A stretch of 12,004 nt of DNA from a virus, in IMG/VR virus record IMGVR_UViG_3300009537_000402, positions 1 through 12,004 of that record; one strand, 5' to 3'. The position numbers were made by a program, and so were the translations under genes. The notes beneath the pieces are model-generated. The model was not told the origin of the DNA, did not search any database, and was given only the letters and a program-made list of their open reading frames with translations. Below, in pieces: positions 1-12,004 of this stretch (position 1 is its first letter; each line of letters starts with the position of its first letter).

Positions 1-99
1 CCGAGCGTAGCGTTGCATCGATGACAACGCTTTAAGCCCCGACCCTACGCAAAAGGGTCAAACCCCTGTGGTTTGAGGGGTGCTGAGACTATTTAGGGC
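1..99. repeat. Terminal direct repeat, copy 1. It is identical to 11906-12004 and is the signature of a circular or terminally redundant genome with an 11,905-bp unit length.
   Basis: Read directly: ccgagcgtagcgttgcatcgatgacaacgc...gctgagactatttagggc at 1-99 recurs base for base at 11906-12004. Confidence 0.95.
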
Positions 100-115
100 T
101 CTTTGAGGATGGATT
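96..115. repeat. Right arm of the perfect 20-bp inverted repeat (gggctctttgaggatggatt).
   Basis: It is the exact reverse complement of 11810-11829. Confidence 0.9.
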
Positions 116-142
116 TAATAGCACATAAAGAATTACAAGTAT

Positions 143-161
143 GAACGAGCTACGCTCGTTC
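143..161 (-). terminator. Perfect 8-bp hairpin with a 3-nt loop, downstream of the 61-aa ORF. Possible terminator or processing site, but not canonical.
   Basis: The sequence is gaacgagc-tac-gctcgttc. On the minus strand it is followed by atacttgtaattcttt, which is T-containing but not a clean U-tract. Its 3' half can alternatively pair with 2-11. Confidence 0.25.
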
Positions 162-204
162 AAGTAAAGTAAATATTTAAATGTTGCTATTAAATCTATT
201 AATA

Positions 205-390
205 TCACTCTGTTCGAGCCCTCAAATGTAACCAAGTATATTCCATAACTGGTGTTTTAGCTTTCTCTTGCTTACGCCTAAATAGCTTGATGGGCTTATT
301 TATTACTTCACTTTCTATCTTTTCAATGTTACTGAAGTTGTGAGATTCAATGTTTATTTCTATTTTTTTCCTATATAACTTCGGTTTCAT
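205..390 (-). CDS. Hypothetical basic 61-aa protein, the last gene before the structured island.
   Basis: ATG start at 390 forms an ATGA overlap with the stop of the upstream 113-aa ORF (tcat at 387-390). It is co-oriented with all other genes. No family was recognised. Confidence 0.55.
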   Translation of the reverse strand: MKPKLYRKKIEINIESHNFSNIEKIESEVINKPIKLFRRKQEKAKTPVMEYTWLHLRARTE

Positions 391-728
391 TGTATAGGTT
401 TCAAGCTACCTTTAACAACATTGGCGTAAGTACCTCTATCAGTTATATTATTGATAGTCATGAAGGAGCATTTCTTTCCGACTAGTACATCCGCAGGGTC
501 GATTTCTTTACCTACCTCTAACTTAGCACCGAAATCGACCAGAAGCAAACCTAGTTTACTATCTTGTGTTATGTTAGTCGGATAGCCATCTATTACTCTA
601 AGCCCTTCACCAAATTCAATAACAATATCAGTGTACTGGAAGGGCTGTTCTCTATATTTAACTTCAACAATGACTCCTTCATGTTTACCTTCTTCAATAA
701 TCCTAGTTTGTTCTATTTTTATTTTCAT
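387..728 (-). CDS. Hypothetical 113-aa protein, possibly an OB-fold DUF669-like phage protein (weak).
   Basis: ATGA overlap with the upstream wHTH gene (tcat at 725-728). The pattern G.HEGVIVEVK...SKLGLLLVDFGA...VLVGKKCSF resembles DUF669-type phage proteins from memory only. Confidence 0.6.
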   Translation of the reverse strand: MKIKIEQTRIIEEGKHEGVIVEVKYREQPFQYTDIVIEFGEGLRVIDGYPTNITQDSKLGLLLVDFGAKLEVGKEIDPADVLVGKKCSFMTINNITDRGTYANVVKGSLKPIQ

Positions 729-991
729 AGTTTCAATTCCTCTTTCATTTTTACTACTAATGATGATATAGTAGTCCTAGCTTTGTCTAATGGTGCTTTA
801 TTTGTTATTTCATAACTGACTTTTCTTTGACTCTCAATTCTTTTAAGCCAGCCTTTAGTTACCATACTAGCCAGAATTCTTAGTAGATAATTATAATCTA
901 TTTCTAGCTTGGCAGATATTTTGGTCGCATATTTATTTTCATTACTTACTTGACTAAGATAAGTAAGAATTCTTGCTTCTGACTTCTTCAT
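725..991 (-). CDS. Winged helix-turn-helix DNA-binding protein (ArsR/MarR/TrmB-like, 88 aa from the ATG at 991).
   Basis: The track ORF starts at a GTG (1003) that lies inside the Shine-Dalgarno site. ATG 991 is preceded by GGGGTGA plus 8 nt. The sequence EARILTYLSQ...YATKISAKLEIDYNYLLRILASMVTKGWLKR is a typical wHTH recognition-helix plus wing pattern. Confidence 0.7.
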   Translation of the reverse strand: MKKSEARILTYLSQVSNENKYATKISAKLEIDYNYLLRILASMVTKGWLKRIESQRKVSYEITNKAPLDKARTTISSLVVKMKEELKL

Positions 992-1214
992 TTGTTTAAT
1001 CACCCCATACTAGAGTAATACTTAACTAATATATTAATGTATCTAATATTCGTTTCATAACCTTTATAAACTAGGGGGTTTTTTATCAATTTATCTAGTT
1101 CTAGTGCTATTAAAAAGTTAATTTAATTAGTTAATTAGATGCAGTTATAATTTTGTTAATACTATATCATTAGTAGTATTTTTCTTTGAGCAAAAAAATT
1201 AAGCCAATTACGGC
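992..1214 (-). promoter_or_regulatory. AT-rich intergenic region upstream of the wHTH gene. It is the probable promoter or operator region and a possible origin.
   Basis: About 220 nt lack any ORF. The region holds AT palindromes (taatatatta; ttaatttaattagttaatta with gttaatt repeated). A minus-strand extended -10-like TGATATAGT lies at 1161-1169. No canonical -35/-10 pair with good spacing was found. Confidence 0.35.
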
Positions 1215-1217
1215 TCA
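1192..1217 (-). terminator. Candidate intrinsic terminator after the 55-aa ORF.
   Basis: The minus strand reads tgagcc-gtaatt-ggctta, a 6-bp stem including one G-U pair, followed by attttttt. The stem is short and overlaps the stop codon. Confidence 0.35.
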
Positions 1218-1382
1218 ATTTTTCTTTTCATTTCTGAAACAAGCAACGGTATGACCAAGTACCTTTACTCTAAGGTAATCTCGACCTTTTTTATCCTTTG
1301 CTTCCCAGATATCTACACCATTGCCTTTGTAAGTAGGTGCAGTACCTACGAATTCAGTTTCATTTATTTTAGTTTTTGCCAT
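1215..1382 (-). CDS. Hypothetical 55-aa protein, below the ORF-track length cutoff (MAKTKINETEFVGTAPTYKGNGVDIWEAKDKKGRDYLRVKVLGHTVACFRNEKKN).
   Basis: Translated by hand. ATG at 1382 is preceded by GGAG plus 10 nt, and the stop TGA is at 1217-1215. It is the only co-oriented ORF in the 1003-1552 gap. Confidence 0.5.
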   Translation of the reverse strand: MAKTKINETEFVGTAPTYKGNGVDIWEAKDKKGRDYLRVKVLGHTVACFRNEKKN

Positions 1383-1416
1383 TTTTATATAGCTCCGCCA
1401 TGTTCGTAATCTTTGT

Positions 1417-1446
1417 CACGACTTAGACACCTTTCCCTTAGTCGTG
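1417..1446. promoter_or_regulatory. Imperfect hairpin in the leader of the 55-aa ORF.
   Basis: Stem cacgact (1417-1423) pairs with agtcgtg (1440-1446). One mismatch and 2 more base pairs follow, and the loop is acacctttcc. Confidence 0.25.
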
Positions 1447-1551
1447 TTTAGAGACTATCTGGACTTCTGCAGTACGGGAGCAAGTAAGTCTATTTATGAT
1501 TTTTTTTCTGTTAAAATTATTAAATAAGACTTTTGCGTGTACGAAGTAGTT

Positions 1552-2373
1552 TTAGAAGATAGTTTTCCAAGCGTCACCGATGTTAATTTGTGCTCCTTCT
1601 ACAGCTTTCCATGTGTCTCCTATGTTGATTTGCATCGCTTCTACGCTTTTCCAGGCATCACCTATATTTATTTGGCAATTTGTACCTTCAGAAAAAGGGT
1701 AAGCTAATCCATTTCCACTGTTATACAGGGAAGTAACTTCTGCAGCTGTTAGGGCTTTGTTCCAGATGCCAATTTCATCGATGTTTCCATCGTAAGCAGA
1801 GGAAGTACTGCTTATGGTATCTGCATAGGTAGTTCCAGAGCCCGAAACAAAAGAAGCATTTGTGAAGTCATTTGAGGCTGCATTAACATCAACAGTTCCG
1901 TTGATGTAAATAGAGATAGTGTCATTTGCGAAATCACAAACCCCTACAACATGAGTCCATGCACCAGCTTCGCTGATCGTGCCAGTTGTTGTTTCGCTTT
2001 GATATGAGCCCCCTGTGCCTGGGTTTGCAGCACATAGTACTGTGTCGCTGGAAGTAACATACATAGCAAAGGCAGTATGTCCAGCATCACTGAAGTAGGA
2101 ATTAAAGATAAAACGGGTATCAGCAGCAGAGTTTGTATAGACCCAAGCTGAGACTGATATTGCAGCTGCTCCGCTGAAGTTATCATTGATGTAGCCAGTT
2201 CCAAATGTGATGTGGTCGTCTGCACCGTCAAAGTCATAGGATGTGTTGATGTGGCCTGATTGGTTTTGGACTGCTCCTGATACTGTTCCGTTTTTTGTTC
2301 CAACAGCATCAACAGCATCGCCAGATGATTCGTCAAGTTTCCAATATCCAATACATCCATCAATTATTGCCAT
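1552..2373 (-). CDS. LamG / concanavalin-A-like lectin-domain protein (273 aa), a probable distal tail fiber or receptor-binding protein.
   Basis: The start is moved to ATG 2373, which is preceded by GAAGAGG plus 7 nt. The pattern GYWKLDESSGD...DFDGADDHITFG...FSGAAAISVSAWVY...IDEIGIWNKALTAAEV is the classic Laminin_G_3-type signature. The C-terminus carries three 14-aa repeats. Confidence 0.8.
   Translation of the reverse strand: MAIIDGCIGYWKLDESSGDAVDAVGTKNGTVSGAVQNQSGHINTSYDFDGADDHITFGTGYINDNFSGAAAISVSAWVYTNSAADTRFIFNSYFSDAGHTAFAMYVTSSDTVLCAANPGTGGSYQSETTTGTISEAGAWTHVVGVCDFANDTISIYINGTVDVNAASNDFTNASFVSGSGTTYADTISSTSSAYDGNIDEIGIWNKALTAAEVTSLYNSGNGLAYPFSEGTNCQINIGDAWKSVEAMQINIGDTWKAVEGAQINIGDAWKTIF
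1555..1674 (-). repeat. In-frame 42-nt tandem repeat, about 2.9 copies, encoding QINIGD(A/T)WK(S/A/T)VE.. at the C-terminus of the LamG protein.
   Basis: Trp codons (cca on the plus strand) occur at 1567, 1609 and 1651, exactly 42 nt apart. The copies differ mainly at synonymous positions (gtcaccgatgttaat, gtctcctatgttgat, atcacctatatttat). Confidence 0.85.
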
Positions 2374-2582
2374 ACATAAACCTCTTCTGTGCATGGTTTT
2401 GGGGGTTTTTCATCGTGATAGCAGGTGTGTTTGGTGTATTTGTAGGTTTTTCCTTCAATTTTTTTAGGAGAAAGTTTAGTTTTAGCTAAATCCAGGTTTC
2501 CATTTTTAATTTCTTCTCTGATATTGTGAGGTGCTATTTTTCCAGGCTCTTTGTCTTCTAGGGCTTCAAGATAGATTTTCAT
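2364..2582 (-). CDS. Hypothetical 72-aa protein between the two fiber genes.
   Basis: TAATG overlap with the tail fiber stop at 2582. The C-terminus has HTCYHDEKPPKPC, a possible small metal-binding knuckle (speculative). Confidence 0.55.
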   Translation of the reverse strand: MKIYLEALEDKEPGKIAPHNIREEIKNGNLDLAKTKLSPKKIEGKTYKYTKHTCYHDEKPPKPCTEEVYVWQ

Positions 2583-3175
2583 TATGCTGTGTATTGGATG
2601 TATATTGTTCCGATTGGGAAGTTAGAAGCTGTGGGTGGTGTTGCATCAGTGTTGTAAAGTACTTGTGCAGTGTATTGAGTGTCGGCCGAGCTATTATCCC
2701 CTGTTAAAGTTAAGCCTACGCCTGTGTCTGAGGCATCATTTTTGAGAAAAGCGTCATCGACATTGAGGGTGTTGGTGGATAAAGTGCAGTTTGTACCTGC
2801 AACTAAGGCTGTTTTAGACATATCAATAGCTGCACTGGCATTTATATCAGCATTTACAATAACTCCAGAGCCGATAGCAACAACACCAGCATTAGACATG
2901 GTGGCATCACCACTTAAGGCATATTCTATGGGTGCTGAGGATGCGTTTCCTATCCATATTTTACCATCAGCTAGGGTTGTATCTCCAGTATTGTCATCAA
3001 CATATTTTTTAGTGGCAATTTCATAATCAGTGGTAGGTGTTACTCTCACTCTACCACGCGAGTGATCTCCAGAGTGATTAGGAAGGATTAAGCCAGTTCC
3101 TACTGGTGTGGCTTTAATTGGCTCCATCTTGGAGCTTACTTGTTTGATTAATCTTGATTCTTTTGTTCTTGCCAT
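2582..3175 (-). CDS. Tail fiber protein (197 aa).
   Basis: The N-terminal region has the EIATKKYVDD motif common in phage tail fiber N-termini. It is followed by Gly/Ser/Thr/Asn-rich beta-type sequence (GDATMSNAGVVAIGSGVIVNADINASAAIDMSKTAL). The start is a TAATG overlap at 3175. Confidence 0.75.
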   Translation of the reverse strand: MARTKESRLIKQVSSKMEPIKATPVGTGLILPNHSGDHSRGRVRVTPTTDYEIATKKYVDDNTGDTTLADGKIWIGNASSAPIEYALSGDATMSNAGVVAIGSGVIVNADINASAAIDMSKTALVAGTNCTLSTNTLNVDDAFLKNDASDTGVGLTLTGDNSSADTQYTAQVLYNTDATPPTASNFPIGTIYIQYTA

Positions 3176-3330
3176 TATTCAAACCCCGCCTTCTTGCGTC
3201 TAGCGACAAGAGAGCCATTTTCAGCAATTAAATTGAGTTTTCTGCCAGTTTGTTTGGTAGTTCTAGCAGTAAGTCCAGATGTAACTGGGTAATCAGTTTT
3301 AACTTCTGCTTGGTTATGAGTATCTGGCAT
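3175..3330 (-). CDS. Hypothetical 51-aa protein, below the track cutoff (MPDTHNQAEVKTDYPVTSGLTARTTKQTGRKLNLIAENGSLVARRKKAGFE).
   Basis: Translated by hand. Its stop overlaps the fiber start as TAATG at 3175, and it fills an otherwise empty co-oriented gap. There is no Shine-Dalgarno site. Confidence 0.45.
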   Translation of the reverse strand: MPDTHNQAEVKTDYPVTSGLTARTTKQTGRKLNLIAENGSLVARRKKAGFE

Positions 3331-3362
3331 ACAAAGAAGAAAGTAAAGGAGTTTAATAAATT

Positions 3363-3545
3363 TTATGTTGATACTGAGCCATTAAGGATGCCCTGGTCGA
3401 TTAGCTGTCTGATAACTTCGCCTAGAACATCAGCAATTTCAGCATCGGCTGCGGCGTTGCAGTCCATAGCTAAATCTTGTGTGTGATTAGTTACTGAGAA
3501 AGCTGGTGCGTGGATGTTATTATTATCCCTTAGATTTCTTGGCAT
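3363..3545 (-). CDS. Hypothetical 60-aa protein.
   Basis: The start is moved from 3593 to ATG 3545, which is preceded by AAGAGGT plus 5 nt. This cuts the overlap with the upstream ORF from 71 nt to 23 nt. Confidence 0.55.
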   Translation of the reverse strand: MPRNLRDNNNIHAPAFSVTNHTQDLAMDCNAAADAEIADVLGEVIRQLIDQGILNGSVST

Positions 3546-3750
3546 CTTTAACCTCTTTTTTTGGCTGGGAAGGTTTGCTACCTTCAAGTTCATTTCGGAT
3601 AGCAGAGTCGATAAATTTTTTACCAGTTAGAATATGATTTTTCATCATATCATAGTTTTTTTGAGACTGTTCTTTAGCGTGGTCTGTCTCAGCATTTTCT
3701 ATGTTATGTTTATAAGCTTTAAGAAGTGCAGCACAATTATCTATTGTCAT
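3523..3750 (-). CDS. Hypothetical helical, Lys-rich 75-aa protein downstream of the capsid gene.
   Basis: ATGA overlap with the capsid gene stop (tcat at 3747-3750). Confidence 0.55.
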   Translation of the reverse strand: MTIDNCAALLKAYKHNIENAETDHAKEQSQKNYDMMKNHILTGKKFIDSAIRNELEGSKPSQPKKEVKDAKKSKG

Positions 3751-4634
3751 GTAATTGTATCGGTGATTACATGAACAGCTTTAGGGTCTGTTAGTAAACA
3801 CTCGCCCTCTTCCCAGACTCTAATTGTTTTTCCGATGCCCGGGTCATCAACGATAGCTGTGGTTAAACCTGTAAACTGCTTCCATGTTGCAGCTCTTTTA
3901 GGTACAAACATGATAACAGTATCGGTTGTCATATTGACACTAACTACAATTTTACAGCCTAGTAATTCCATGACTACTCCGGATTTAACTTTATCGCTGG
4001 AGAATTGAGGAATACTTGAGCCTTTAACATCGATTAAGTAGTTTAAAAGGTGTTTGTGTTCAGCTGGGTGCATATAAATAATACATCCTTCTGGGTCATA
4101 TCTGTTAGTTCGGATTTGTTCTTTTCCGTTTAAGATATCAGTGATAGGATTACCGGTTACTGTGTCGTCCCAGCCATCTTGGGTAGCGGCAGCGGTGTTT
4201 ACATTACCGCCTGTACCTAGAGTGTCGCCTAGAACTGTTAAAATTCTTTGATCGACTTGATTTGATACAGCTAAAACTAAGTCTCTGACATTAGTAGCTA
4301 GGATATCTGGGTCTGTGTCTTTGATATCTTCAATAGTAATTAGAGGAGATGCAACAAAGAATTTTTTAACATAGCTAGTCTGCCGAGTCCATGACTGCTC
4401 GGCTACGACCGGCAATGCTTTAAACGAGGTATTTAAAATTTGTGATGCAGTGATAGCAGTAGTATCAGTAGAATCAATAAACCCTGCAGTTTTTTGATAC
4501 CATCGGATTTCTCTAGCATTTGTTTTGGCTACTGTTACAAATCTTTTGAGCATTAACGCTTCATCAGCAAAGCCTTTGGCTAGTTTGTCTATGTTAATTC
4601 CTCTTATATCCGCTTGTGCGCTTGAGTCTGCCAT
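3747..4634 (-). CDS. Major capsid protein (295 aa, presumed HK97 fold).
   Basis: The size and position (scaffold-like, decoration-like, then this ORF) are typical. It is a long uninterrupted ORF with a TAATG-coupled start. The fold is assumed and was not verified. Confidence 0.7.
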   Translation of the reverse strand: MADSSAQADIRGINIDKLAKGFADEALMLKRFVTVAKTNAREIRWYQKTAGFIDSTDTTAITASQILNTSFKALPVVAEQSWTRQTSYVKKFFVASPLITIEDIKDTDPDILATNVRDLVLAVSNQVDQRILTVLGDTLGTGGNVNTAAATQDGWDDTVTGNPITDILNGKEQIRTNRYDPEGCIIYMHPAEHKHLLNYLIDVKGSSIPQFSSDKVKSGVVMELLGCKIVVSVNMTTDTVIMFVPKRAATWKQFTGLTTAIVDDPGIGKTIRVWEEGECLLTDPKAVHVITDTIT

Positions 4635-5047
4635 TATGCTAAGTTAACATTAAAAGGTGCTAATTTGAATAGGAAGCTTTCTGTGTCGGCTGCTGTTTCT
4701 AAAGCCATGCCTACGATTGCTTCAGAGTTTACATCTGCAACTACTAACTCGTTGGCTGCTCCTGTTGCTGTATCTGTGATAATTGCTAGTCCAGCTGTAA
4801 CTCCAGCTGCTCCAGCAAATCCTCTGAAGATGCCTTCCATATAAACTGCTATTTTGGTTTTACCATCGTTAGCGATTTTTTCTTCTGCAGCAATACCAAT
4901 GATTTCATCAGTATCTCCAGTAGTGACCGCAACAGTAGCCGGGTCAGTTAAAATAAGAATTGAGCCTTTTTCGATGGTTGCACCATCAGCACAAGTAAAC
5001 GGTACTGGTACGCCAGTTTCGTAAATTAGGGTTGCTTCGAGTGCCAT
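4634..5047 (-). CDS. DUF2190-like head decoration or capsid-associated protein (137 aa).
   Basis: It is Gly/Ala/Thr-rich (GIAAEE...GFAGAAGVTAGLAIITDTATG) and lies immediately upstream of the capsid gene, as in many DUF2190-family decoration proteins. Confidence 0.5.
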   Translation of the reverse strand: MALEATLIYETGVPVPFTCADGATIEKGSILILTDPATVAVTTGDTDEIIGIAAEEKIANDGKTKIAVYMEGIFRGFAGAAGVTAGLAIITDTATGAANELVVADVNSEAIVGMALETAADTESFLFKLAPFNVNLA

Positions 5048-5068
5048 GGGGGTAGGAAGGATATTGTT

Positions 5069-5260
5069 CTATTTAAACTTTTCCTTCTCTATGGTTATTT
5101 TGCCTTTAGCAAATCCTAAAATCCCTTTTTGTACTACCAAAGCATCTTCATATTGTTCTATCAGAGCTTCGGTTTCATCGTGTACTTTAGTCCAAATAAC
5201 TTCAGTTTTACTGCCTATTTTTACACCTAGGTCTTTTGGTACTTTTGGTTTGTCTCCCAT
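5069..5260 (-). CDS. Hypothetical 63-aa protein.
   Basis: TAATG overlap with the upstream scaffold-like ORF at 5260. It is co-oriented with the other genes. Confidence 0.5.
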   Translation of the reverse strand: MGDKPKVPKDLGVKIGSKTEVIWTKVHDETEALIEQYEDALVVQKGILGFAKGKITIEKEKFK

Positions 5261-5568
5261 TATAATCGCCCAGCCATAATTCTTTTGGCGTACTCTTGGG
5301 GCGTTTCTTCTTTCTCTACCTTGGGAGTACCAGCTTGAGATTTGCCGCTTAAAATGTCTGTCGTAGCCATCTTTTCAGCTCTTTCCAGATTTTTGACCAG
5401 CTTTTTATTTTCTTCTTTAAGTTCTTTAACAACTTGTTTGGCCTCTTTTATGGAAGTAGGAGCGTCCGATTCCTCGGACTCCTCTCCTTCTTCTTCATCT
5501 GTGGGTGTGTTTTCCTCAACAGATTCCTCTGGTTGAGCATCAACATCCCCATTTAGTTCTTCAGTCAT
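5260..5568 (-). CDS. Acidic coiled-coil protein (102 aa), a putative scaffolding protein.
   Basis: It has a strong Shine-Dalgarno site (AAAGGTGA plus 4 nt). The N-terminus is Glu/Asp-rich and is followed by a helical KELKEENKKLVKNLERAEK segment. It sits between the portal-proximal genes and the capsid gene. Confidence 0.55.
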   Translation of the reverse strand: MTEELNGDVDAQPEESVEENTPTDEEEGEESEESDAPTSIKEAKQVVKELKEENKKLVKNLERAEKMATTDILSGKSQAGTPKVEKEETPQEYAKRIMAGRL

Positions 5569-5572
5569 TTTA

Positions 5573-5710
5573 TCACCTTTTTAATCTGATTATGAGTGTG
5601 TTTATCGCTTCTGTGTTTTTCCTTAAAATCTTCTCAAATCGGACTATAAGGTAAATACTTAAAGCAATAGGGAATCCTACAGTACTTATTAATTCTACGA
5701 TTTCTTGCAT
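5573..5710 (-). CDS. YvrJ-like small membrane protein (45 aa, below the track cutoff): MQEIVELISTVGFPIALSIYLIVRFEKILRKNTEAINTLIIRLKR.
   Basis: Translated by hand. The start is a TAATG overlap with the 458-aa ORF stop at 5710. The GFPIA..YL.VR.E pattern matches my recollection of the YvrJ family, which consists of short Bacillota and phage peptides. Confidence 0.5.
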   Translation of the reverse strand: MQEIVELISTVGFPIALSIYLIVRFEKILRKNTEAINTLIIRLKR

Positions 5711-7086
5711 TATAATAACCCGAAGTTTAAGCTAGATGGTGCTCTATTTTCGTAATATTTTTCATTTTGTTTTTTTAAATCATTGTAGTATTTTTCAGCT
5801 TCTTTTCTTTTTTCATCCAGGAGAGCCTGGTTTCTTTTTCTGATATTTTCGTAATATTGTTCAGCTTCTATTCTTTCATCGCTTCTTTTCTTTCTTCGTT
5901 CTTTTTCAATACGATCGTAATAGGCTTCTAGTTCTTCTCTCCTTCTGGCTTCTCTTTCGTCTAGAAGTCTAAGTCGTTCGGCAAATCGAGCATCATCTTC
6001 ATTAAGTCGTCTCTGTCTAGCTTCTTCGTATTCTTGGGTTTTTCTGGCATCTTCTTCTTCTCTTTTTTTTCTTCTTTCTTCATATTCTAAATCAGCTGGG
6101 GAAGGCTGTCCCGCCCTGGCCACAGTACCTTTGATTAGTTCTCTGTCTTGTTTCCAGTTATCCCAAACTTGTAGAGGGAAATTTACGATGGGTATGAGAG
6201 CCCTGGCTATCCTTCCAGCACTTGTTAATTCATCGTGCATTTCTTCTAATCTTTTTAGTTGTTCGATATCTCCGTTTCTTTCAGCATCACTTGCTCTGAA
6301 TACTAAATCTGATGATGCGTCATCAAGAATATTAAAAGTGAGTTTTGTTTCAAAAGCGTATGCGGCTAAAGCACCAGCTACCCATAATTGTCCTTTAGAA
6401 ATTTTATTTAGTAAATTTTTTATGAGTCCAGATTTTTTAGTATTCATTTTAGCTCCAGCAGTGGTTTGACCAGAAGCGGCTTTGATTACATCTGGAGCGT
6501 CATCAATAAATTTAGCAGCGTATTTTCCAACCATTCTTTCTAATCCTTCTCTAGCTGATTTTGCTGCTGCTGTTTTAGCTACTCCCTTAACAGCACCCTT
6601 CACTACTGTACCTCCAACTAGGCCAGAAGCTAATTCTGCTGGGGATTGAGGTTGGTCTGTACCTAAAAATTTTCTAACTGGTGCGAATTGGTCTGATACC
6701 TGTTGGAGTGTGTCTCCAACTCCTCTGCCAACATCTTTTATTGTTTCTTTAGCTCTGGTGATAAAAGTTTGACCAGTCTGTTCGAAATCTCCTACAGCAC
6801 CGCCCCCGCCTACAGCTGGAGTCTCAACACCAAAATCTCTTGCCCTTCTCGATACGCCTCCCCCGCCTACGCTACCAGGAGAAATAGGTCTCGCTTCTCT
6901 GCCAGCTATTGGTGAAGGACTTTTGAATCTATCTTTTGATGTGACTGCAGCTTTGCCTACTTTTTTAGCAATACCTTTAATATTTTCAGTTAATTGTTTT
7001 GTAACTGGTTTGGGCGTTTTTCCCTTTCTGGTGAAAGCTTTTTTTACTCTTTTGAAAGCTTTTTTGATTCTATCTCTAAATCCCAT
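5710..7086 (-). CDS. Large 458-aa virion-associated protein candidate. It occupies the position of a minor head or internal protein directly after the portal gene.
   Basis: Shine-Dalgarno GAGGT plus 9 nt, with a TAATG overlap with the portal stop. The N-terminus is basic. Two VGGGG motifs are encoded by a repeated cccccgcctac string. A hydrophobic segment LWVAGALAAYAF follows. The C-terminal 110 aa or so are Arg/Glu/Lys-rich with a recurring E..YY..I.K motif. Confidence 0.6.
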   Translation of the reverse strand: MGFRDRIKKAFKRVKKAFTRKGKTPKPVTKQLTENIKGIAKKVGKAAVTSKDRFKSPSPIAGREARPISPGSVGGGGVSRRARDFGVETPAVGGGGAVGDFEQTGQTFITRAKETIKDVGRGVGDTLQQVSDQFAPVRKFLGTDQPQSPAELASGLVGGTVVKGAVKGVAKTAAAKSAREGLERMVGKYAAKFIDDAPDVIKAASGQTTAGAKMNTKKSGLIKNLLNKISKGQLWVAGALAAYAFETKLTFNILDDASSDLVFRASDAERNGDIEQLKRLEEMHDELTSAGRIARALIPIVNFPLQVWDNWKQDRELIKGTVARAGQPSPADLEYEERRKKREEEDARKTQEYEEARQRRLNEDDARFAERLRLLDEREARRREELEAYYDRIEKERRKKRSDERIEAEQYYENIRKRNQALLDEKRKEAEKYYNDLKKQNEKYYENRAPSSLNFGLL

Positions 7087-8216
7087 TATGTTTTGACCTC
7101 GTTAGGAGTAGGTTGTTGTGGTGGTGTAGCTTCCTGGTTTTCTACTGATGTATCTTCTGGAGTATTAGCTTGTTGAGTTTCGCTTTTTGATGAATCCGAG
7201 AGGAGCTCGTTTTGTAAACTTGCTGGGAATTCCAGCTCTATCTCTAAATCCAGCTGAATTAAGACTTGTTCTTCTAAAAATAATTGTTCTTCTTCGATAG
7301 TTTGTTCGAAAGCTAAGTAAGCTATTTTAGCAGAAGCCTCAGTAATCTCTTGAGACCCCCCGACGATGATTTGAGGTACGCCAGTAGCCTGGAAGAAATA
7401 CTGATTAAGCTGTTGAATCCAAGGTAAAGGGTTAAGCATCGAGTTAGTAGGGACAGCTGAAAGCTCAGTTTCAACAGTTCCCATTGGGACATAGATATTT
7501 TCGCCCTGCGTGTAAGCTCTATCTGCTTTAGCCTTAAACGCAGCGATTTTGGTTGTGTCATCTGTATCTAAGTGCCAGATTCTAACTGGATAAACATTAC
7601 GATGAAGTAGCTTTTTGTAATCAGCCATAGCTTCATTACGCATGAGGATGATATCCTCAACAGCTTTGACCATACTTACGCCATGTATTTCATCAGCTAC
7701 TCTGTTTCTGGCTAAGTGGAAAATATCTTCTGGCTCAAATCTGGCATTAACCATACCTTTTGGTTTATTAAGTTGTTCGTAACGGATGATTACTCCTTTT
7801 TTATTGGCTACGATTCTGATGAGTTCGGGATCTAAAGGCTTTAGATTTACAAGTCTGCCTTTTTTATCTCTAATAATTTCGCAATATGAATCCCCGCCTA
7901 TGTGATATGTTCGTACACAATTTTCCAGGATAGTGTTAAAAGTGTCTTTACCCCATCCTTTAATTTCATCTAAGACAATTTGAGTGATTTCATTACTCTG
8001 AAATCCTTTGCCGATAGTCCAGGTAGCTTTAGCATCAATAGCAGCGGCTAATTCTGGAATAGCTTTGTAGAAGCCAAACCATTTAGACCAGTCGGTATTA
8101 TCATAATAAGTTTCAACATCTTCAGCACCATCAGTAGTTTCTACCTGTGGTGCATATAAATCTTCAGTACCTTCGAGGTTACTAATATCAACATTTGCTA
8201 TATCTGTATCTGGCAT
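7086..8216 (-). CDS. Portal protein (376 aa).
   Basis: Sequence is Phage_portal-like: IGGDSYCEIIRDKKGRLVNLKPLDPELI, NRVADEIHGVSMVKAVEDIILMRNEAMADYKKLL, PQIIVGG...ASAKIAYLAFEQTIEEEQ, plus an acidic C-terminal tail. Shine-Dalgarno is AAGAGGGA plus 8 nt. Confidence 0.85.
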   Translation of the reverse strand: MPDTDIANVDISNLEGTEDLYAPQVETTDGAEDVETYYDNTDWSKWFGFYKAIPELAAAIDAKATWTIGKGFQSNEITQIVLDEIKGWGKDTFNTILENCVRTYHIGGDSYCEIIRDKKGRLVNLKPLDPELIRIVANKKGVIIRYEQLNKPKGMVNARFEPEDIFHLARNRVADEIHGVSMVKAVEDIILMRNEAMADYKKLLHRNVYPVRIWHLDTDDTTKIAAFKAKADRAYTQGENIYVPMGTVETELSAVPTNSMLNPLPWIQQLNQYFFQATGVPQIIVGGSQEITEASAKIAYLAFEQTIEEEQLFLEEQVLIQLDLEIELEFPASLQNELLSDSSKSETQQANTPEDTSVENQEATPPQQPTPNEVKT

Positions 8217-8491
8217 TATATTATTCCCTCTTTTTCCCAGTCCTCAAATATTTTTTCAAATCCTAGGTTATTATCTTTGCTGTGTTGTTTCATTGAAAGT
8301 ATTTTGTCTGGTTTAGCATCATCTTCGATGATTTCTTTAAAATGATTTTCGAATTTATCTACAGCTATTCTGATGGTGTTTTTTTGACCATGTTCGTCCG
8401 TCCATTGTTTTAGGGTAATCTGGTCTATACCTTCTAGTTTGTCTTTTATCTTTACTCCTAGTTTTGTTGTTATCCAGTCTTTAGCTTTCAT
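8216..8491 (-). CDS. Hypothetical 91-aa protein.
   Basis: The track start at 8512 is a TTG. ATG 8491 gives an ATGA overlap with the upstream stop (tcat at 8488-8491). Its own stop overlaps the portal start as TAATG. Confidence 0.55.
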   Translation of the reverse strand: MKAKDWITTKLGVKIKDKLEGIDQITLKQWTDEHGQKNTIRIAVDKFENHFKEIIEDDAKPDKILSMKQHSKDNNLGFEKIFEDWEKEGII

Positions 8492-8766
8492 ACGACTATC
8501 CCACAATAACAAAGTGTTTGTGTAGATGCTACATTATTGAGCATGATTAAATAATTTGTGTTAGTTACGAAGAGTTTAACAGCGCCAAACTTTTGGCTGT
8601 CGTTGATGTAAGCCGTAAGAGTGCCGTTATAGAGACCATAATTGATTGTTGCCCAGTTACTCGTTCCACAATGAGTAATAATCCATTGAACGCCCGATGC
8701 CGGCTGAACAGCCCAGCTACTATTTGCGGTGATAGATGATAATCCGTTTACTATTGTAAATGCCAT
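8488..8766 (-). CDS. Hypothetical beta-rich 92-aa protein (alternative start at ATG 8784).
   Basis: ATG 8766 forms a TAATG overlap with the hand-found 54-aa ORF upstream. Neither candidate start has a Shine-Dalgarno site. Confidence 0.5.
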   Translation of the reverse strand: MAFTIVNGLSSITANSSWAVQPASGVQWIITHCGTSNWATINYGLYNGTLTAYINDSQKFGAVKLFVTNTNYLIMLNNVASTQTLCYCGIVV

Positions 8767-8930
8767 TATAATATGAGTGCCCATTTCTTAATGGAATCTT
8801 CACTAAGAACGGTTATTATGTTTCCTTCTTCATCTTCAATTTTAGCAAAGCCACTGCTAGTGACACCTAAACCCTGGTTTTCAGAGTTAGGGAATATGTT
8901 TGATTTGAGTAAGCCGAATTCTAATACCAT
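8766..8930 (-). CDS. Hypothetical 54-aa protein, below the track cutoff (MVLEFGLLKSNIFPNSENQGLGVTSSGFAKIEDEEGNIITVLSEDSIKKWALIL).
   Basis: Translated by hand. The ATG lies 1 nt after the nuclease stop codon, and the stop forms a TAATG overlap with the next ORF. Confidence 0.45.
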   Translation of the reverse strand: MVLEFGLLKSNIFPNSENQGLGVTSSGFAKIEDEEGNIITVLSEDSIKKWALIL

Positions 8931-8931
8931 T

Positions 8932-9384
8932 TTATTCAATTTTAGGCAATATCCAGTCTATATCTGGAATTACGCCTTCAAGTCTTTTGTTCCAGAATTT
9001 AGCGTATCCTGAATTTGCCATTTCTTCACCTATATCATTACCAGCTAGGATTATATTTCCTAGTAGTCTGCCCCATTTTTCTACTCTATTGAATTTATTG
9101 ATTTTAATGGTTACTTTTTTATTGAGAATCATTTTTTCTAAAGCACTCTGAGATTTCTTTCCCCCTTTTTCAGACATCTCTGGAGCGGCGATATTTGAGA
9201 ATCGTACAGGGAAATCAAATTCTCGATGCTGCCATCTGACCGTAATTGTATCGCCATCATGCACTTTAACGACTTTAGCTTGAAAGTCCTCAAAAATTTG
9301 CTTATGGGGACTACTGAAGTAATAGAAATTCATCTGCGCGTTGGTGAGTTCTGGGAATCTGTCGAAATCGTGTCCATTTGTCAT
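8932..9384 (-). CDS. Staphylococcal nuclease (thermonuclease/SNase) homolog (150 aa).
   Basis: It aligns by eye to S. aureus nuclease: VHDGDTITV (the D19/D21 region), VRFSNIAAPE (R35...E43) and KWGRLLGNI (R87). Ala replaces the metal ligand Asp40. Confidence 0.8.
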   Translation of the reverse strand: MTNGHDFDRFPELTNAQMNFYYFSSPHKQIFEDFQAKVVKVHDGDTITVRWQHREFDFPVRFSNIAAPEMSEKGGKKSQSALEKMILNKKVTIKINKFNRVEKWGRLLGNIILAGNDIGEEMANSGYAKFWNKRLEGVIPDIDWILPKIE

Positions 9385-9749
9385 TATGATTCATTGATAA
9401 AATCGACTGCTTTTTTGTCTCTCAGTAAAGCTAGGGCTCTTAATCCAGCATCTCTGAGAACATTAATCATATCTTCACCTTCAATTCTGGAAGTGTAGCC
9501 AGACAAATCATAGATAATGACATAAATGGCAGCGAAGTTTGAAGCGGCTTCTTTGAGAAGTCCTTTGGTGTCTGCGTTTAGGGAAGCGTAATTATCGCTG
9601 AAATTGTATCTGCAAGTGACATTAATCATAGATTCCACTTGAGTCATAAAATCGTTGATGTATGCTTCGACATTAGAAGTGCTACTAGCATTAGCTCCAG
9701 TTTTTCTCTGCACTTCTGCAGTTGTTGCGAATATTCCAGTATCAGCCAT
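9384..9749 (-). CDS. Hypothetical 121-aa protein, with weak resemblance to gp6-like head-tail connector proteins.
   Basis: ATG at 9749, and its stop overlaps the nuclease start as TAATG. The helical pattern (AYINDFMTQVESMIN...AASNFAAIYVIIYD) is only suggestive. Confidence 0.5.
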   Translation of the reverse strand: MADTGIFATTAEVQRKTGANASSTSNVEAYINDFMTQVESMINVTCRYNFSDNYASLNADTKGLLKEAASNFAAIYVIIYDLSGYTSRIEGEDMINVLRDAGLRALALLRDKKAVDFINES

Positions 9750-9814
9750 TTTTTAAACGCTAGGTGCATAACCACAAGTACAGTCTATCCAATGATTAGA
9801 GCACCCAGGACATA

Positions 9815-10348
9815 TCATAAAACTTTAGGTAGGATATTTACTAATTTATTAGTGGGAGGAATGCCGTCGTCGTTAGCATCACATCCTAACTTTACCTCCA
9901 ATATTGTGCCTTTCAGTCCTTTAGGGATATCAAGACCTATTCCAATTAATGCAGATGGGAATCTTGCACCATCTCCGTCTAATCCTTCGTATGATACTCT
10001 TCTATCTGGAATAAATATCCATGAGCAATTAGGCAATATTTCTTTCTGCCACAAGGATGTTTCAAGATTATCACATCTATAAATCGCTACTCCTTTCTTA
10101 ATTACCTTAAAGAAATGTCTGAACATTACATACGCCTTTGAAAATGGGGGATTCATCCATGCAACCTTATCCATATCACTGATATCTTGAAAATCTTCTT
10201 CTGAAAACGTTTCCGTCTTAGTATTTTCTTTCGTGGCACAGCAGTCAAATTCAAAATTATACTGTTCCATCAAAGGATCAAATACCCATGATGGAGTTTC
10301 CCATTCATCCCTTGAAGGATTGTTACCTTTTCCGTTGTTTGCTTTCAA
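9815..10348 (-). CDS. Phage Dam-family DNA N6-adenine methyltransferase (177 aa, TTG start).
   Basis: Motifs seen are EWETPSWVF, FDCCAT and the catalytic NPPFS, then CDNLETSLW. The codon at 10348-10346 is TTG, preceded by AGAGGT plus 8 nt. Confidence 0.75.
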   Translation of the reverse strand: MKANNGKGNNPSRDEWETPSWVFDPLMEQYNFEFDCCATKENTKTETFSEEDFQDISDMDKVAWMNPPFSKAYVMFRHFFKVIKKGVAIYRCDNLETSLWQKEILPNCSWIFIPDRRVSYEGLDGDGARFPSALIGIGLDIPKGLKGTILEVKLGCDANDDGIPPTNKLVNILPKVL

Positions 10349-10367
10349 TCTTATCTACCTCTGGAAA

Positions 10368-10388
10368 CCGCACACTTTAGTGTGTCGG
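10368..10388 (-). promoter_or_regulatory. Hairpin between the terminase and methyltransferase genes, a possible attenuator or mRNA stabiliser.
   Basis: The minus strand reads ccgACACAC-taaa-GTGTGcgg, 8 bp with one bulge, followed only by tttcc. The Shine-Dalgarno site of the methyltransferase lies just downstream. Confidence 0.3.
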
Positions 10389-10406
10389 AGGATGTCATTT
10401 TTTTTA

Positions 10407-11702
10407 CTAATGGATGTAAATATTTAAATTTTTGCTTCCTATGAGCCAAGCTGCTCTTATTAATGCTTCTGTGATGTGGGAGTCGTTTCCCATGTATTTT
10501 ACTTTTGCGTTGATTATTTCAAATTGTATGGAGCGTAAAGAGTGAAAAATATCATCTCTTTTGAGCAGCTTGATCCTTCCCCACTCCATCATGGCTAAGA
10601 GGTTGTTATACATATCTTCTTTTAGTAAGCGTTTTTTCTGTTTTCCATCTCTGGTGAGGCTTCGGCTGGCGTTGTTTAAGGCGATGGTTTTTCTTCTGGT
10701 TTCATCAGCTTTGAGAAGGTAATCAAAGTCTCCACTACCTAGCCCCCCATCATCAATGCCTATTTTTCTGAAAGAGTAGATTCTTTCTAATTTGGTGGTG
10801 TAATTGACTCTTTCTGGTGTTGTGAGTTTATTTGATACTTTGTAAGCGTTCATGGTTATATTTTTGCTGTCTGTACCATCTAAAACAGCCCAGACTGTAC
10901 TATCTCGACCCATCCCTGCTACATCTATGCCTAGGAAATAGTCTCTCCTGGGCCGGATATTAGGTGAATCTTCAATGATAAGTACTTTTTCAAGTAGTTT
11001 GTCGGGGAATACTTGTTTTAGGTCTTGGAGTGGTTGTCCCATGTATTCTTGAGCATAGGCTAGAGCAGTCATCCTGGATTTTTCAGCTTGTAGTCTTTCT
11101 AGGGCTCTATCTCGTTGATGTTCTGTCCAGGTTTCGCATATTTCTCTTTCTCTGACGACCTTTTCGGAATCTGTACGAAATCTGGTGTAAGAATTAAAGG
11201 CATTGCCTTTATTGATAAGAACATCATAAAAAAACCCCTCAGTCCCGAAAGGTGTAGAAAGAAGTATTGTGTCCCCGCCTGTGGTTAATAGCATAGGGGT
11301 GACTGCATCCCAGACGGGCTCGGGAATCCGAGAGGCTTCATCAGCGTATAATCTGTGTACGGTTAAAAATCTTATGCCTAAACCACTGAGTCCTGTTGGC
11401 AGACACCATATAATCGTGCCATTTTTGAGCGTGATTTTGGATTTTGTGGGGCGAAATTTGCCTTTTCTGATGATGGTTTTATCTTTTCTGAGGATATAAT
11501 CAAGTGTTTTTTCAAATAGAGCGTACGCCTGGCGCTCAGTCGGAGCGATCATAAGTACGACTTTCTTAGGGTTGTTGATAGCATATTCCCCAGCATCTAT
11601 GCCACAAACTACTGATTTACCTACTTGCCTGCCAGTACAAAGGTGTTTATCACCTTTAGTAGATAAAAAAGCTTTTTGCCAGGGGTCTAGTTTTATTTCC
11701 AT
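10407..11702 (-). CDS. terL: Terminase large subunit (431 aa from ATG 11702).
   Basis: Walker A is GRQVGKS and Walker B-like is LYADEA. Nuclease-domain acidic motifs are GIDVAGMGRDS and IGIDDGGLG. The track start at 11747 is a GTG whose 15 extra codons run into the GC-rich island. MEIKLDPWQKAF is a typical TerL N-terminus. No Shine-Dalgarno site precedes 11702. Confidence 0.85.
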   Translation of the reverse strand: MEIKLDPWQKAFLSTKGDKHLCTGRQVGKSVVCGIDAGEYAINNPKKVVLMIAPTERQAYALFEKTLDYILRKDKTIIRKGKFRPTKSKITLKNGTIIWCLPTGLSGLGIRFLTVHRLYADEASRIPEPVWDAVTPMLLTTGGDTILLSTPFGTEGFFYDVLINKGNAFNSYTRFRTDSEKVVREREICETWTEHQRDRALERLQAEKSRMTALAYAQEYMGQPLQDLKQVFPDKLLEKVLIIEDSPNIRPRRDYFLGIDVAGMGRDSTVWAVLDGTDSKNITMNAYKVSNKLTTPERVNYTTKLERIYSFRKIGIDDGGLGSGDFDYLLKADETRRKTIALNNASRSLTRDGKQKKRLLKEDMYNNLLAMMEWGRIKLLKRDDIFHSLRSIQFEIINAKVKYMGNDSHITEALIRAAWLIGSKNLNIYIH

Positions 11703-11809
11703 TATATAAAAAATTTGTCTGCCGCATCCTGGGATACACGCATCCACATCCCTTCAAACTCGCTACCCACATACATACAACATTAAGCTCGAGCATCCCA
11801 GCCTCTGGG

Positions 11810-11829
11810 AATCCATCCTCAAAGAGCCC
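11810..11829. repeat. Left arm of a perfect 20-bp inverted repeat (aatccatcctcaaagagccc).
   Basis: It is the exact reverse complement of 96-115. The arms are 171 nt apart on the circular map (11830-11905 plus 1-95). Confidence 0.9.
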
Positions 11830-11905
11830 CGCGGTACGCGGGCGACCGAAGGGAGCCCGCCTATTATTCGTCTCAGCATGAGGGCTGGGCTCTTTCTAGA
11901 CCTGC

Positions 11906-12004
11906 CCGAGCGTAGCGTTGCATCGATGACAACGCTTTAAGCCCCGACCCTACGCAAAAGGGTCAAACCCCTGTGGTTTGAGGGGTGCTGAGACTATTTA
12001 GGGC
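11906..12004. repeat. Terminal direct repeat, copy 2 (identical to 1-99).
   Basis: Same 99-nt string as 1-99. The window ends exactly where the copy ends, as expected for a fixed-length assembly overlap. Confidence 0.95.

Follow-up and report, generated by a model that had tools for sequence, protein, structure and literature searches.

The 12,004-nt stretch analysed here (IMG/VR virus record IMGVR_UViG_3300009537_000402, positions 1 to 12,004; hereafter the window) carries a G+C-rich, hairpin-dense non-coding island directly upstream of terL, the large terminase gene, and it is this island that we characterize. The window is composed of an 11,905-bp unit and an exact 99-nt terminal overlap (1-99 = 11906-12004). 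The genome is that of an 11.9-kb tailed virus, circular or circularly permuted, near the lower size limit of tailed viruses, which lies at ~11.6 kb for isolates (bioRxiv 10.1101/2025.06.18.659913). All plausible genes are on the - strand, which we call sense; the + strand is antisense to every gene. In addition to terL, they encode a Dam-type methyltransferase, an SNase-like nuclease, a portal, a major capsid protein, a cement-like protein, a LamG-domain protein, a TrmB/MarR-like winged helix-turn-helix protein and several small unknowns. terL starts at 11702 (ATG at 11700-11702, - strand), 107 nt from the outer helix of the island. The island and its immediate neighbours comprise the following features, of which those listed without a strand are not assigned to one.

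10407-11702, - strand: terL, large terminase of 431 aa (PF03237, phrog_2, Terminase_6N), first gene downstream of the island on the sense strand
11796-11808: small hairpin CCCAG-CCT-CTGGG, in the minimum-free-energy fold of both strands, between the anchor block (see below) and the outer helix
11810-11829: 5' arm (+ strand) of the outer, 20-bp helix, pairing with 96-115
11828-11842: all-GC 6-bp hairpin CCCGCG-GTA-CGCGGG, an alternative pairing
11838-11860: composite (core) hairpin, a covariance model hit of 35.6 bits, with orthologues in the relatives L074, L078 and L079
11870-11878: 5' arm of the 9-bp helix, pairing with 81-89 (= 11986-11994)
11906-12004: 99-nt exact repeat of 1-99, an assembly overlap that closes the circle and is not biological
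1-115: second half of the island, with the hairpin 9-15/25-31, a three-way junction (37-40/77-80, 41-45/55-59 and 60-64/70-74) and the 3' arms of the 9-bp helix (81-89) and the 20-bp helix (96-115)

The original prediction, made from the sequence of the window, had described a G+C-rich non-coding island upstream of terL, and the composition bears this out: G+C content is 58% at 11801-12000 and reaches 66-68% in 50-nt windows, against 38.7% for the genome. All seven helices that it listed are perfect Watson-Crick complements (11810-11829/96-115, 20 bp; 11870-11878/81-89, 9 bp; 9-15/25-31; 37-40/77-80; 41-45/55-59; 60-64/70-74; and 11828-11833/11837-11842). The joined 217 nt were folded as RNA and as DNA, on both strands, and compared with shuffled sequences, a check that the prediction had called for. 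The RNA fold has an energy of -114.5 kcal/mol on the + strand (shuffles -74.1 ± 4.4, z -9.2) and -111.9 kcal/mol on the - strand (z -8.9), and the DNA fold has energies of -60.0 (z -7.6) and -60.9 kcal/mol (z -8.6) on the + and - strands, respectively. Not one shuffled sequence folded as well as the island, as RNA or as DNA. The structure-forming potential of the island is real and far beyond chance on both strands. A G+C-rich, strongly folding island in an AT-rich genome is by itself insufficient as evidence for a structured RNA, and no known RNA is recognized, in agreement with the prediction: the Rfam 15 covariance models gave no match to the island on either strand of the window at E <= 10 and no match whatever in seven relatives at E <= 1, and scans for tRNA and tmRNA found none.

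The nested architecture proposed for these helices stands only in part. Each helix is perfect, but not all of them can form simultaneously, as the 6-bp hairpin competes with both the outer helix and the core hairpin, the latter backed by comparison with relatives. The core-hairpin arm GCGGGC (+ strand, 11838-11843) can pair instead within the CCCGCG/CGCGGG hairpin (11828-33/11837-42). This A-A'-A arrangement is found in L079 as well (GCCCGC-ACCG-GCGGGC) and could be either a two-state switch or the simple product of hairpin duplication. A cUUCGg tetraloop had been read on the minus strand at 11846-11851; the register of the stem yields a triloop, the family keeps CCGAAGG on the + strand, and the GC/GC inner pairs that prevail in the family cannot form UNCG loops. 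The cUUCGg reading is probably coincidental. The circular junction that the prediction placed within the island is merely a 99-nt assembler-type overlap. In circular-looking relatives the overlaps measure 114-127 nt, lengths typical of assembler k-mers, and the junctions are scattered over arbitrary positions of the genome. This rules out the junction as a genome end, and the position of the window's junction inside the island is therefore an uninformative coincidence of assembly.

Homologues of terL number 1,943 at E <= 1e-50. For the comparisons that follow, ~150 related loci with 34-77% terL identity were fetched, and motif and repeat searches were run over 714 kb. Full-length contigs of the family measure 11.3-12.8 kb and come from ocean water, the deep sea and sediments. 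The closest relatives of the window have 75-77% terL identity, while the nearest named viruses (Meiothermus and Thermus phages, Halogranum tailed virus 1 and a Methanobacterium virus) are ~28% identical. A terL scan of 185,579 species-representative genomes returned zero relatives. The virus family is large and apparently undescribed.

Across this family the hairpin cluster is a conserved element, present at the equivalent place. Of 70 whole contigs, 43 have their most G+C-rich 60-mer at a distance of 100-1,700 nt upstream of terL, down to ~37% terL identity; each viral genome has a single cluster of constant place and strand, and the cluster is kept across terL identities from 34% to 100%. 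What is kept is not a sequence. Islands of relatives are arrays of 1 to ~10 perfect G+C-rich hairpins with unrelated sequences, and blastn and nhmmer searches for homology found only short motifs and no homologue of the island in relatives. The upstream region of L067, considered as the closest relative, also proved unrelated. The conserved elements of the island were found by reading and by structure-aware searches. The earlier remark that the island is what structured RNAs look like fares badly here, as the architecture is not conserved, the number of hairpins ranges from 1 to ~10 and their sequences vary. That the region is non-coding, strongly structured and under selection is supported. 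A module of C7-8, AA, C6-7, a short loop and G6-7 recurs in the islands of L014, L018, L027, L074, L076, L079 and L119, and is found at 480-520 of L130, directly after an origin recognition box (ORB; see below); it is absent from the window. Its two C-runs and one G-run allow alternative pairing or an intramolecular triplex.

One hairpin recurs in a composite form, in which the outer stem leads through a 2x2 internal loop (TC/TC) to a 2-bp mini-helix capped by a triloop. In the window it reads GCGGGC-TC-CC-TTC-GG-TC-GCCCGC on the - (sense) strand. On the + strand the 23-nt hairpin reads GCGGGC-GA-CC-GAA-GG-GA-GCCCGC, that is, a tandem G·A and a CCGAAGG mini-hairpin (11846-11852), with the core GGGC-GA-CCGAAGG-GA-GCCC. 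A search of the 714 kb by structure only (stem-TC-SS-NNN-SS-TC-stem) returned 27 sense against 4 antisense instances, with 26 of the 27 in the island zone; among the composite hairpins the outer stem takes at least 15 different forms and the inner pairs four combinations. Between the window copy and its orthologues in L074, L078 and L079, the mini-helix shows a C:G to G:C double change. In an alignment of 21 sequences, both-sided changes are seen in 7 of 8 pairs (53 cells vs ~20 in shuffles); pairing belonged to the selection rule of this alignment, and what counts as independent evidence is where the hairpins lie, their bias to one strand and the invariance of C-TC...TC-G. A covariance model run at E <= 1 over both strands of 704 kb placed all 30 of its hits on the sense strand, nine of them outside the training set. 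The hairpin persists on the sense strand of L281 (34% terL identity), where it precedes terL by 1.2 kb. Its stems vary even within a single genome, and the only conserved bases are the unpaired ones.

The two strands are alike in folding energy and G·U content. The island loops, mostly tri- and tetraloops, are markedly asymmetric: on the sense strand T..C loops outnumber G..A loops by 49 to 14 (p = 1e-5), and in the rest of the genome the bias is reversed (260 vs 427). The commonest sense triloops, C-TTC-G and C-TCC-G, correspond to antisense C-GAA-G (8) and C-GGA-G (7), and the composite hairpin takes the antisense form C-GA-SC-NNN-GS-GA-G, a tandem G·A internal loop with a short cap. GCGNAGC and C-GNA-G form exceptionally stable DNA mini-hairpins that contain a sheared G-A pair, with melting temperatures in the order N = A > G > C > T (PMC13037366). 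In the G+C-rich segments, GCGNAGC/CCGNAGG heptamers occur 103 times on the antisense strand, against 26.4 ± 5.3 in dinucleotide shuffles (z 14.5, ~four-fold), and 19 times on the sense strand, where 22.1 are expected and no enrichment is seen. Their density in the 2 kb upstream of terL is 0.95/kb antisense and 0.28/kb sense, compared with 0.11/kb for the antisense strand elsewhere, and N is A or G in 89 of 130. The window has two such motifs on its + strand, CCGAAGG at 11846-11852 and GCGTAGC at 5-11. As the GNA loops and tandem G·A belong to the antisense strand, the signature is that of DNA mini-hairpins and is not RNA-like. These data point to selection for stable single-stranded DNA (ssDNA) hairpins on the strand antisense to the genes, the + strand of the window. 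The island is not a known RNA and is probably not RNA at all; it is of greater interest as a DNA element of the whole family than in any RNA role.

The long helices of the island have a counterpart of unrelated sequence in L076, where a 20-bp helix is likewise found. No long-range perfect inverted repeat in the 107 distinct loci (714 kb) is longer than these two, each of which brackets the hairpin cluster at ~320-340 nt from terL on the upstream side. Counting every long-range inverted repeat of 14 bp or more gives 27, of which 22 are upstream of terL, 21 of these at 250-1,250 nt. Repeats so far apart pair readily only if ~200 nt are single-stranded, and we count this for an ssDNA function. 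L074 and L079 share a nested domain in which the 8-bp closing helix is fully substituted and still complementary (CAGCCAAC/GTTGGCTG vs CGGGAGAC/GTCTCCCG). The nested architecture that had been predicted is thus a recurrent design in the nearest relatives, given the helix of L076 and the covariation between L074 and L079, but it is not family-wide.

A link to a replication origin comes from the distant relatives. In L097, AAGTTCCAGTGGAA occurs as an inverted pair, and this pointed to the archaeal ORB, published as the consensus CTTCCAGTGGAAACGAAAGGGGT (PMC4153887) and in the versions GTTCCAGTGGAAAC-AAA----GGGGG (PMC1868953) and [TC]TCCAGTGGAAA[TC][GA]AA (PMC4164010). The exact ORB dyad TTCCAGTGGAA, an 11-mer, occurs in at least 13 distinct distant relatives, against ~0.3 expected by chance according to our own estimate. 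Every dyad is located between the island and terL; certain copies extend to a complete ORB that includes the G-string (GTTCCAGTGGAAATCATGGGGGGT), and inverted pairs occur. ORB-bearing relatives have a constant layout of island, ORB(s), 40-80 nt at 3-10% G+C, small open reading frames (ORFs) and terL, and L058 and L145 carry both the island and the ORB. Judged by its sequence elements, this layout is the canonical architecture of an archaeal origin and would place the island directly beside that origin. The ORBs and the AT-rich stretch argue for archaeal hosts for at least part of the family, and the hosts of the family are probably archaea. The ORB and the core hairpin were also considered as mutually exclusive alternatives; one overlap is observed and 1.3 are expected, and the idea was dropped. 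Tandem repeats adjoin the island or origin in L132 (7720-7817, CAAAATA/CAAATA units over ~110 nt) and in L097 (130-220, (TA)n beside the ORB pair).

The core hairpin is found outside the family as well. Its exact pattern has at least 120 hits in cellular genomes, of median 71% G+C and mostly due to chance. In viral contigs, 10 matches to the real pattern compare with 7 to a composition-matched control (CT/CT), and 8 of the 10 are a single coding-sequence coincidence in one phage species. The hairpin was therefore rejected as a universal motif, with exact matches at chance level outside the family and the haloarchaea. Eight haloarchaeal loci carry the exact pattern, among them one with a 23-mer identical to that of the window (L211, 7802-7824; Halorarius litoreus chromosome), and L171 also contains TCCCGTTGGTC, an 11-mer that three viral relatives have too. 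Four loci have arrays of 3-5 hairpins according to the covariance model:

L171, 2549-2778: haloarchaeal array
L161, 6723-6858: haloarchaeal array
L191, 1415-1499 and 2097-2339: haloarchaeal arrays
L229, 5080-5322: haloarchaeal array, including a database-masked run of N

These arrays occupy ordinary intergenic spacers, in either orientation to the flanking genes, and the flanking sequence is common across genera. No description of them was found in the literature searched, and they may represent an undescribed class of repeats resembling repetitive extragenic palindromic (REP) elements. The presence of both orientations in haloarchaea weakens any explanation specific to the mRNA strand. The arrays may reflect a generic role for a host factor, e.g., in DNA topology, and suggest that the viruses exploit a hairpin already recognized by their hosts.

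The non-coding region extends beyond the island on both sides and includes the following features.

11703-11763, - strand: conserved 'anchor' block, in the sense direction GCGAGTTT-N38-CAGACAAA-TTTTTTATATA, abutting the terL ATG
112-196: 12-bp inverted repeat (112-123/185-196) that encloses palindrome T1 and a TATA-like box
143-161: palindrome T1, GAACGAGC-NNN-GCTCGTTC
174-181, sense strand: TATA-like box TTTAAATA, 12-18 nt upstream of T1 in the window, L074 and L076
387-728, - strand: OB-fold, single-strand-binding (SSB)-like protein of 113 aa, the last conserved gene before the non-coding region

In the clade of the window, the anchor block between island and terL reads GCGAGTNT-N~38-(C)AGACAAA plus an A/T-rich run. 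Every relative whose terL is at least 58% identical has it, with its spacing kept, and in these relatives an AT-rich run of 50-80 nt follows. Relatives have 110-900 nt with 1-4 variable small ORFs between the block and terL; the window has none and seems to have lost this segment. AGACAAA and the T/A-rich box (window 11700-11720, - strand) resemble an archaeal promoter with TFB-recognition element and TATA box, and adjoin the terL start codon. With the AGACAAA box directly against the terL ATG, a promoter belonging to terL itself has no space, and transcription of terL may start from a promoter further upstream. On the other side of the island, the T1 stem and its upstream TATA-like box are kept in L074 and L076 without covariation, for which reason T1 may function as double-stranded DNA. 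Going by sequence, T1 and the TATA-like box may together be an operator that works as duplex DNA and overlaps a promoter; the 92-aa TrmB/MarR-like protein (725-1003) could be what binds it. The 113-aa protein has a confidently predicted OB fold (pLDDT, the predicted local distance difference test, of 89), and structure comparison retrieves PrgE, the SSB-like protein of plasmid pCF10, as the best match (E = 1e-4, template-modelling score 0.61-0.67), followed by the Teb1 OB domain and SSBs. A 61-aa ORF (205-390) lies between the OB-fold gene and the island.

Elsewhere in the window, Pfam and PHROG searches with the ORFs found no replication initiator, polymerase, primase, helicase or integrase. 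The largest unassigned protein (458 aa; 5710-7086, - strand) is encoded between portal and scaffold; its N-terminal part is basic and glycine-rich, its C-terminal tail is extremely charged, E/R/K-rich and coiled-coil-like, and a faint tape-measure hit is its only family match. A second non-coding stretch at 1003-1552 (22% G+C at 1001-1200) contains a 55-aa ORF (1215-1382) preceded by TATATAAAAATG, which resembles the start context of terL, and an unwinding element or promoter could lie there instead. Lineages differ in the accessory genes that they carry between origin and terL. L092 has an HNH endonuclease (3148-3429) just upstream of terL, as in cos-type phages, and CcdA-like ribbon-helix-helix DNA-binding proteins are found in ORB-bearing lineages (L058 1264-1614, L145 4260-4556). 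The small ORFs between island and terL were examined as candidate small terminases and rejected: some are ribbon-helix-helix-like, one encodes an HNH nuclease and the remainder are unassigned. In L020, a 12.8-kb relative, a sequence like the 3' half of a tRNA (GGGGTTCGAATCCCC ... CCA) is found upstream of terL (3406-3560), where ARAGORN detects no intact tRNA; it may be the remnant of an attachment site.

We read the island as an origin-flanking, strand-specific cluster of DNA mini-hairpins that would act in single-stranded form, in the manner of the single-strand initiation (ssi) signals and single-strand origins (sso) of plasmids and phages and of the hairpin promoters of phage N4, and we assign this reading a probability of roughly 0.4. 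Among the four roles offered by the original prediction, that of a single-strand or replication origin is the best fit. With comparable reserve, the island might be regarded as one conserved module of the single large control region of the genome, situated beside the origin. We infer that the hairpins form in vivo as ssDNA and act in replication. In the mechanism that we envisage, the AT-rich neighbour would be opened by host initiators, or the hairpins would extrude under negative supercoiling. The + strand, antisense to the genes, would then fold into very stable hairpins with C-GNA-G caps, one of which would bear the invariant tandem G·A internal loop. ssDNA folded in this way would resist coating by single-strand-binding protein, and a host factor, possibly together with the viral OB-fold protein, could read the hairpins and start or organize DNA synthesis on that strand. 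A bolder version, which we regard as doubtful, is that hairpins with tandem G·A and GNA caps form a novel class of archaeal ssDNA signals common to haloarchaeal chromosomes and to a cosmopolitan family of ~12-kb tailed viruses devoid of replication genes, with a host factor, aided by the viral OB-fold protein, recruiting priming or replisome loading beside the origin. If true, the cluster would be the first ssi-like element for archaeal viruses and would explain the replication of the smallest tailed viruses.

Several observations weigh against an origin-linked ssDNA function. In the window, the ORB dyad TTCCAGTGGAA(A) is matched only at chance level, at 2 mismatches, and the published ORB variants are absent from 15 members of its clade (at least 56% terL identity). 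The AT-rich stretch of the window measures just ~25 nt and overlaps the terL start, compared with 40-80 nt in the relatives. As its clade is devoid of ORBs, the window is linked to an origin through synteny, the relatives concerned being 38-45% identical. A compact genome gathers its cis elements in one intergenic region, and adjacency to an origin is weak functional evidence. Gene order is invariant, and hairpin polarity with respect to the origin is thus inseparable from hairpin polarity with respect to transcription; in addition, the TATA-like box upstream of T1 could drive transcription through the island. We know of no archaeal primase or replisome factor that reads hairpins. The mini-hairpin enrichment and the core-hairpin counts partly overlap and are not fully independent, and the haloarchaeal arrays fit a general REP-like element better than an origin-specific one.

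An explanation could also be sought at the RNA level, on the gene-sense strand, with the island forming an operon 3' end or a terL leader that protects ends, insulates or attenuates read-through, or binds a regulator. The arrangement of the locus is in keeping with this, as the genes are all on one strand with the island between the last gene and terL, hairpin polarity is strictly tied to the direction of transcription, the TATA-like box stands 12-18 nt upstream of T1 in the window, L074 and L076, and terL, with AGACAAA abutting its ATG, probably needs an upstream promoter. The sense-strand RNA fold is strong (z = -8.9). We nevertheless consider this reading unlikely, because the stabilizing loop motifs are on the opposite strand: the sense U..C loops and UC/UC internal loop have no known stability, UNCG-type loops make up just 6 of 70 tetraloops on the sense strand, and G·U pairs are not commoner there. 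No - strand hairpin of the island is followed by a T-run in a search for intrinsic terminators, which gave 9 sites in the window vs 8.7 expected. L076 has a hairpin followed by T8 upstream of its island, such that termination may precede the island, and the haloarchaeal hairpins occur in both orientations. The latter are an argument for a REP-like palindrome that either serves a generic host role (e.g., a gyrase or nucleoid-protein site) or is a semi-selfish passenger, acquired from or convergent with host chromosomal repeats and without a specific part in initiating replication. The eight loci with the exact pattern, including the identical 23-mer of L211, and the arrays of 3-5 hairpins in spacers of L171, L161, L191 and L229, in either orientation, support such a reading, as does the great difference in hairpin number and sequence between related viruses. 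The viral genomes, by contrast, have one cluster of fixed place and strand, with no dispersed copies seen; the cluster is retained from 34% to 100% terL identity, and exact matches beyond the family and haloarchaea are at chance (10 vs 7 in the control). As an account of the viral island we hold this to be less probable still than an RNA element of the sense strand.

A pac or cos site, at or next to which terminase would start packaging, is suggested by the position of the island immediately upstream of the packaging module, by the HNH nuclease just upstream of terL in one lineage, and by fragmentary contigs, which often end at the island (L085, L099, L102 and L127 at 0 nt; L118 and L146 at ~30 nt). 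Contig breaks there are expected from assembly alone, however, because the hairpins are G+C-rich and hypervariable, and the junctions of circular-looking contigs fall at arbitrary places. No small terminase was found among the ORFs of the window or the variable small ORFs of relatives. Terminases recognize duplex DNA sequence. Conservation of unpaired bases only, with stems that vary within one genome, is unlike such recognition and makes a packaging site improbable. The long perfect closing helix of the nested architecture in the window and L076, the covarying helices of L074 and L079 and the very strong folding z-scores might betray a discrete non-coding RNA transcribed from the island, which could resemble a packaging RNA or act as an antisense regulator and might be cut out at the 20-bp helix. 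We judge this highly improbable: neither the window nor seven relatives match Rfam, the architecture is not conserved beyond the nearest relatives, and a sigma-70 promoter scan, which does not cover archaeal promoters, found none that would drive antisense transcription of the island, with window sites at or below chance. The packaging-RNA-like role named in the prediction is further disfavoured by the lack of an Rfam match to packaging RNA (pRNA), by a classical large terminase of the Terminase_6N type in place of a phi29-type ATPase, and by the absence of a DNA polymerase gene. Least credible of all is a miniature inverted-repeat transposable element or an invertible segment bounded by the perfect 20-bp inverted repeat, which flanks 171 bp. 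The inserted palindromic element of the prediction falls under this heading: by inspection the flanks show no target-site duplication, a search of 2.9 million viral contigs and the rest of the window gave no further copy of the arm, no recombinase gene is present among the window ORFs, and the enclosed core hairpin is orthologous and equally oriented in relatives that lack the repeat.

The family is abundant in marine and sediment metagenomes and is without a recognizable replication enzyme. The present analysis supplies candidate cis elements, namely, for most lineages, a conserved strand-specific cluster of DNA hairpins and, for some, an ORB accompanied by an AT-rich stretch, together with a candidate trans factor in the SSB-like OB-fold protein of the adjacent gene. 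The ORBs provide a sequence-based argument for archaeal hosts of at least part of the family. Furthermore, the arrays of the 23-nt hairpin in haloarchaea point to an undescribed class of archaeal repeats that can be studied in genetically tractable haloarchaea.

Comparison with known systems places these elements in context. The pRNA of phi29 is likewise a structured non-coding element tied to the packaging genes of a very small tailed phage; the island differs in having no Rfam pRNA match and a classical large terminase. Archaeal rolling-circle origins require an adjacent Rep endonuclease of ~400 aa, of the DUF7845/PF25227 or HUH type, and the origins of Rep-Arvir of SNJ2 and of HUH enzymes have a conserved hairpin and a variable upstream inverted repeat at the operon end (PMC13107129). 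No protein of the window matches DUF7845/PF25227 or HUH, nor any other Rep endonuclease family in Pfam or PHROG, and a rolling-circle origin of either kind was rejected as there is no Rep gene in the window. The haloarchaeal arrays resemble REP elements and bacterial interspersed mosaic elements in being G+C-rich imperfect palindromes with conserved mismatches, set in intergenic arrays in either orientation. Bacterial REP elements have a conserved GTAG-type 5' tetranucleotide and an associated REP-associated tyrosine transposase. Neither was seen here, and the many dispersed copies in both orientations that typify REP elements appear to be present for the haloarchaeal hairpins, while the viral cluster is single and fixed in place and polarity. 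Archaeal Orc1/Cdc6 origins are matched by the inverted pairs of ORB dyads beside 40-80 nt of 3-10% G+C in distant relatives, and differ from the window and its clade, which have no ORB. G+C-rich hairpin clusters are, to our knowledge, not a described part of archaeal chromosomal origins.

The early promoters of phage N4 are similar in form. They have 5-7 bp stems, GGA or GAA triloops and GCGGAGC-type mini-hairpins on one strand, and work in an extruded single-stranded form (PMC13037366). In the island, the antisense strand, which is the template strand, likewise bears the C-GAA-G (8) and C-GGA-G (7) triloops. N4 hairpin promoters are stabilized by SSB, and the neighbour gene of the island encodes an SSB-like protein. 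Unlike N4, the window has no virion RNA polymerase gene (no ORF matches an RNA polymerase), and the island is a cluster of variable number and not a set of single promoters upstream of early genes. A close parallel to the proposed ssDNA function is offered by the ssi signals of RSF1010 oriV (ssiA and ssiB), by the complementary-strand origins of phages G4, St-1 and alpha3, and by the sso of rolling-circle plasmids, which are likewise strand-specific, very stable DNA hairpins and which lie in or beside an origin. DNA mini-hairpins occur at the priming origins of G4, St-1 and alpha3, with GCGAAAGC or GCGTTAGC in G4-type origins, and ssiA, served by the primase RepB', contains the same CCGAAGG mini-hairpin as the window at 11846-11852 (PMC13037366). 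The viral hairpins keep strictly to one strand and one orientation (30/30 covariance model hits, loop polarity 49:14), and GNA mini-hairpin motifs are present in the window and across the family. The ssi and sso elements lie in a structured non-coding block of 150-300 nt. In these elements, as in the island, structure is conserved more than sequence. The resemblance has its bounds, as sequence homology is limited to the heptamer, and the island is an array of 1-10 hairpins, one with tandem G·A. The known elements serve bacterial ssDNA phages and plasmids with their own primase or Rep, whereas the window represents a terminase-packaged double-stranded DNA virus, probably archaeal, in which no primase or Rep gene was found, and its hairpin cluster is a candidate signal.

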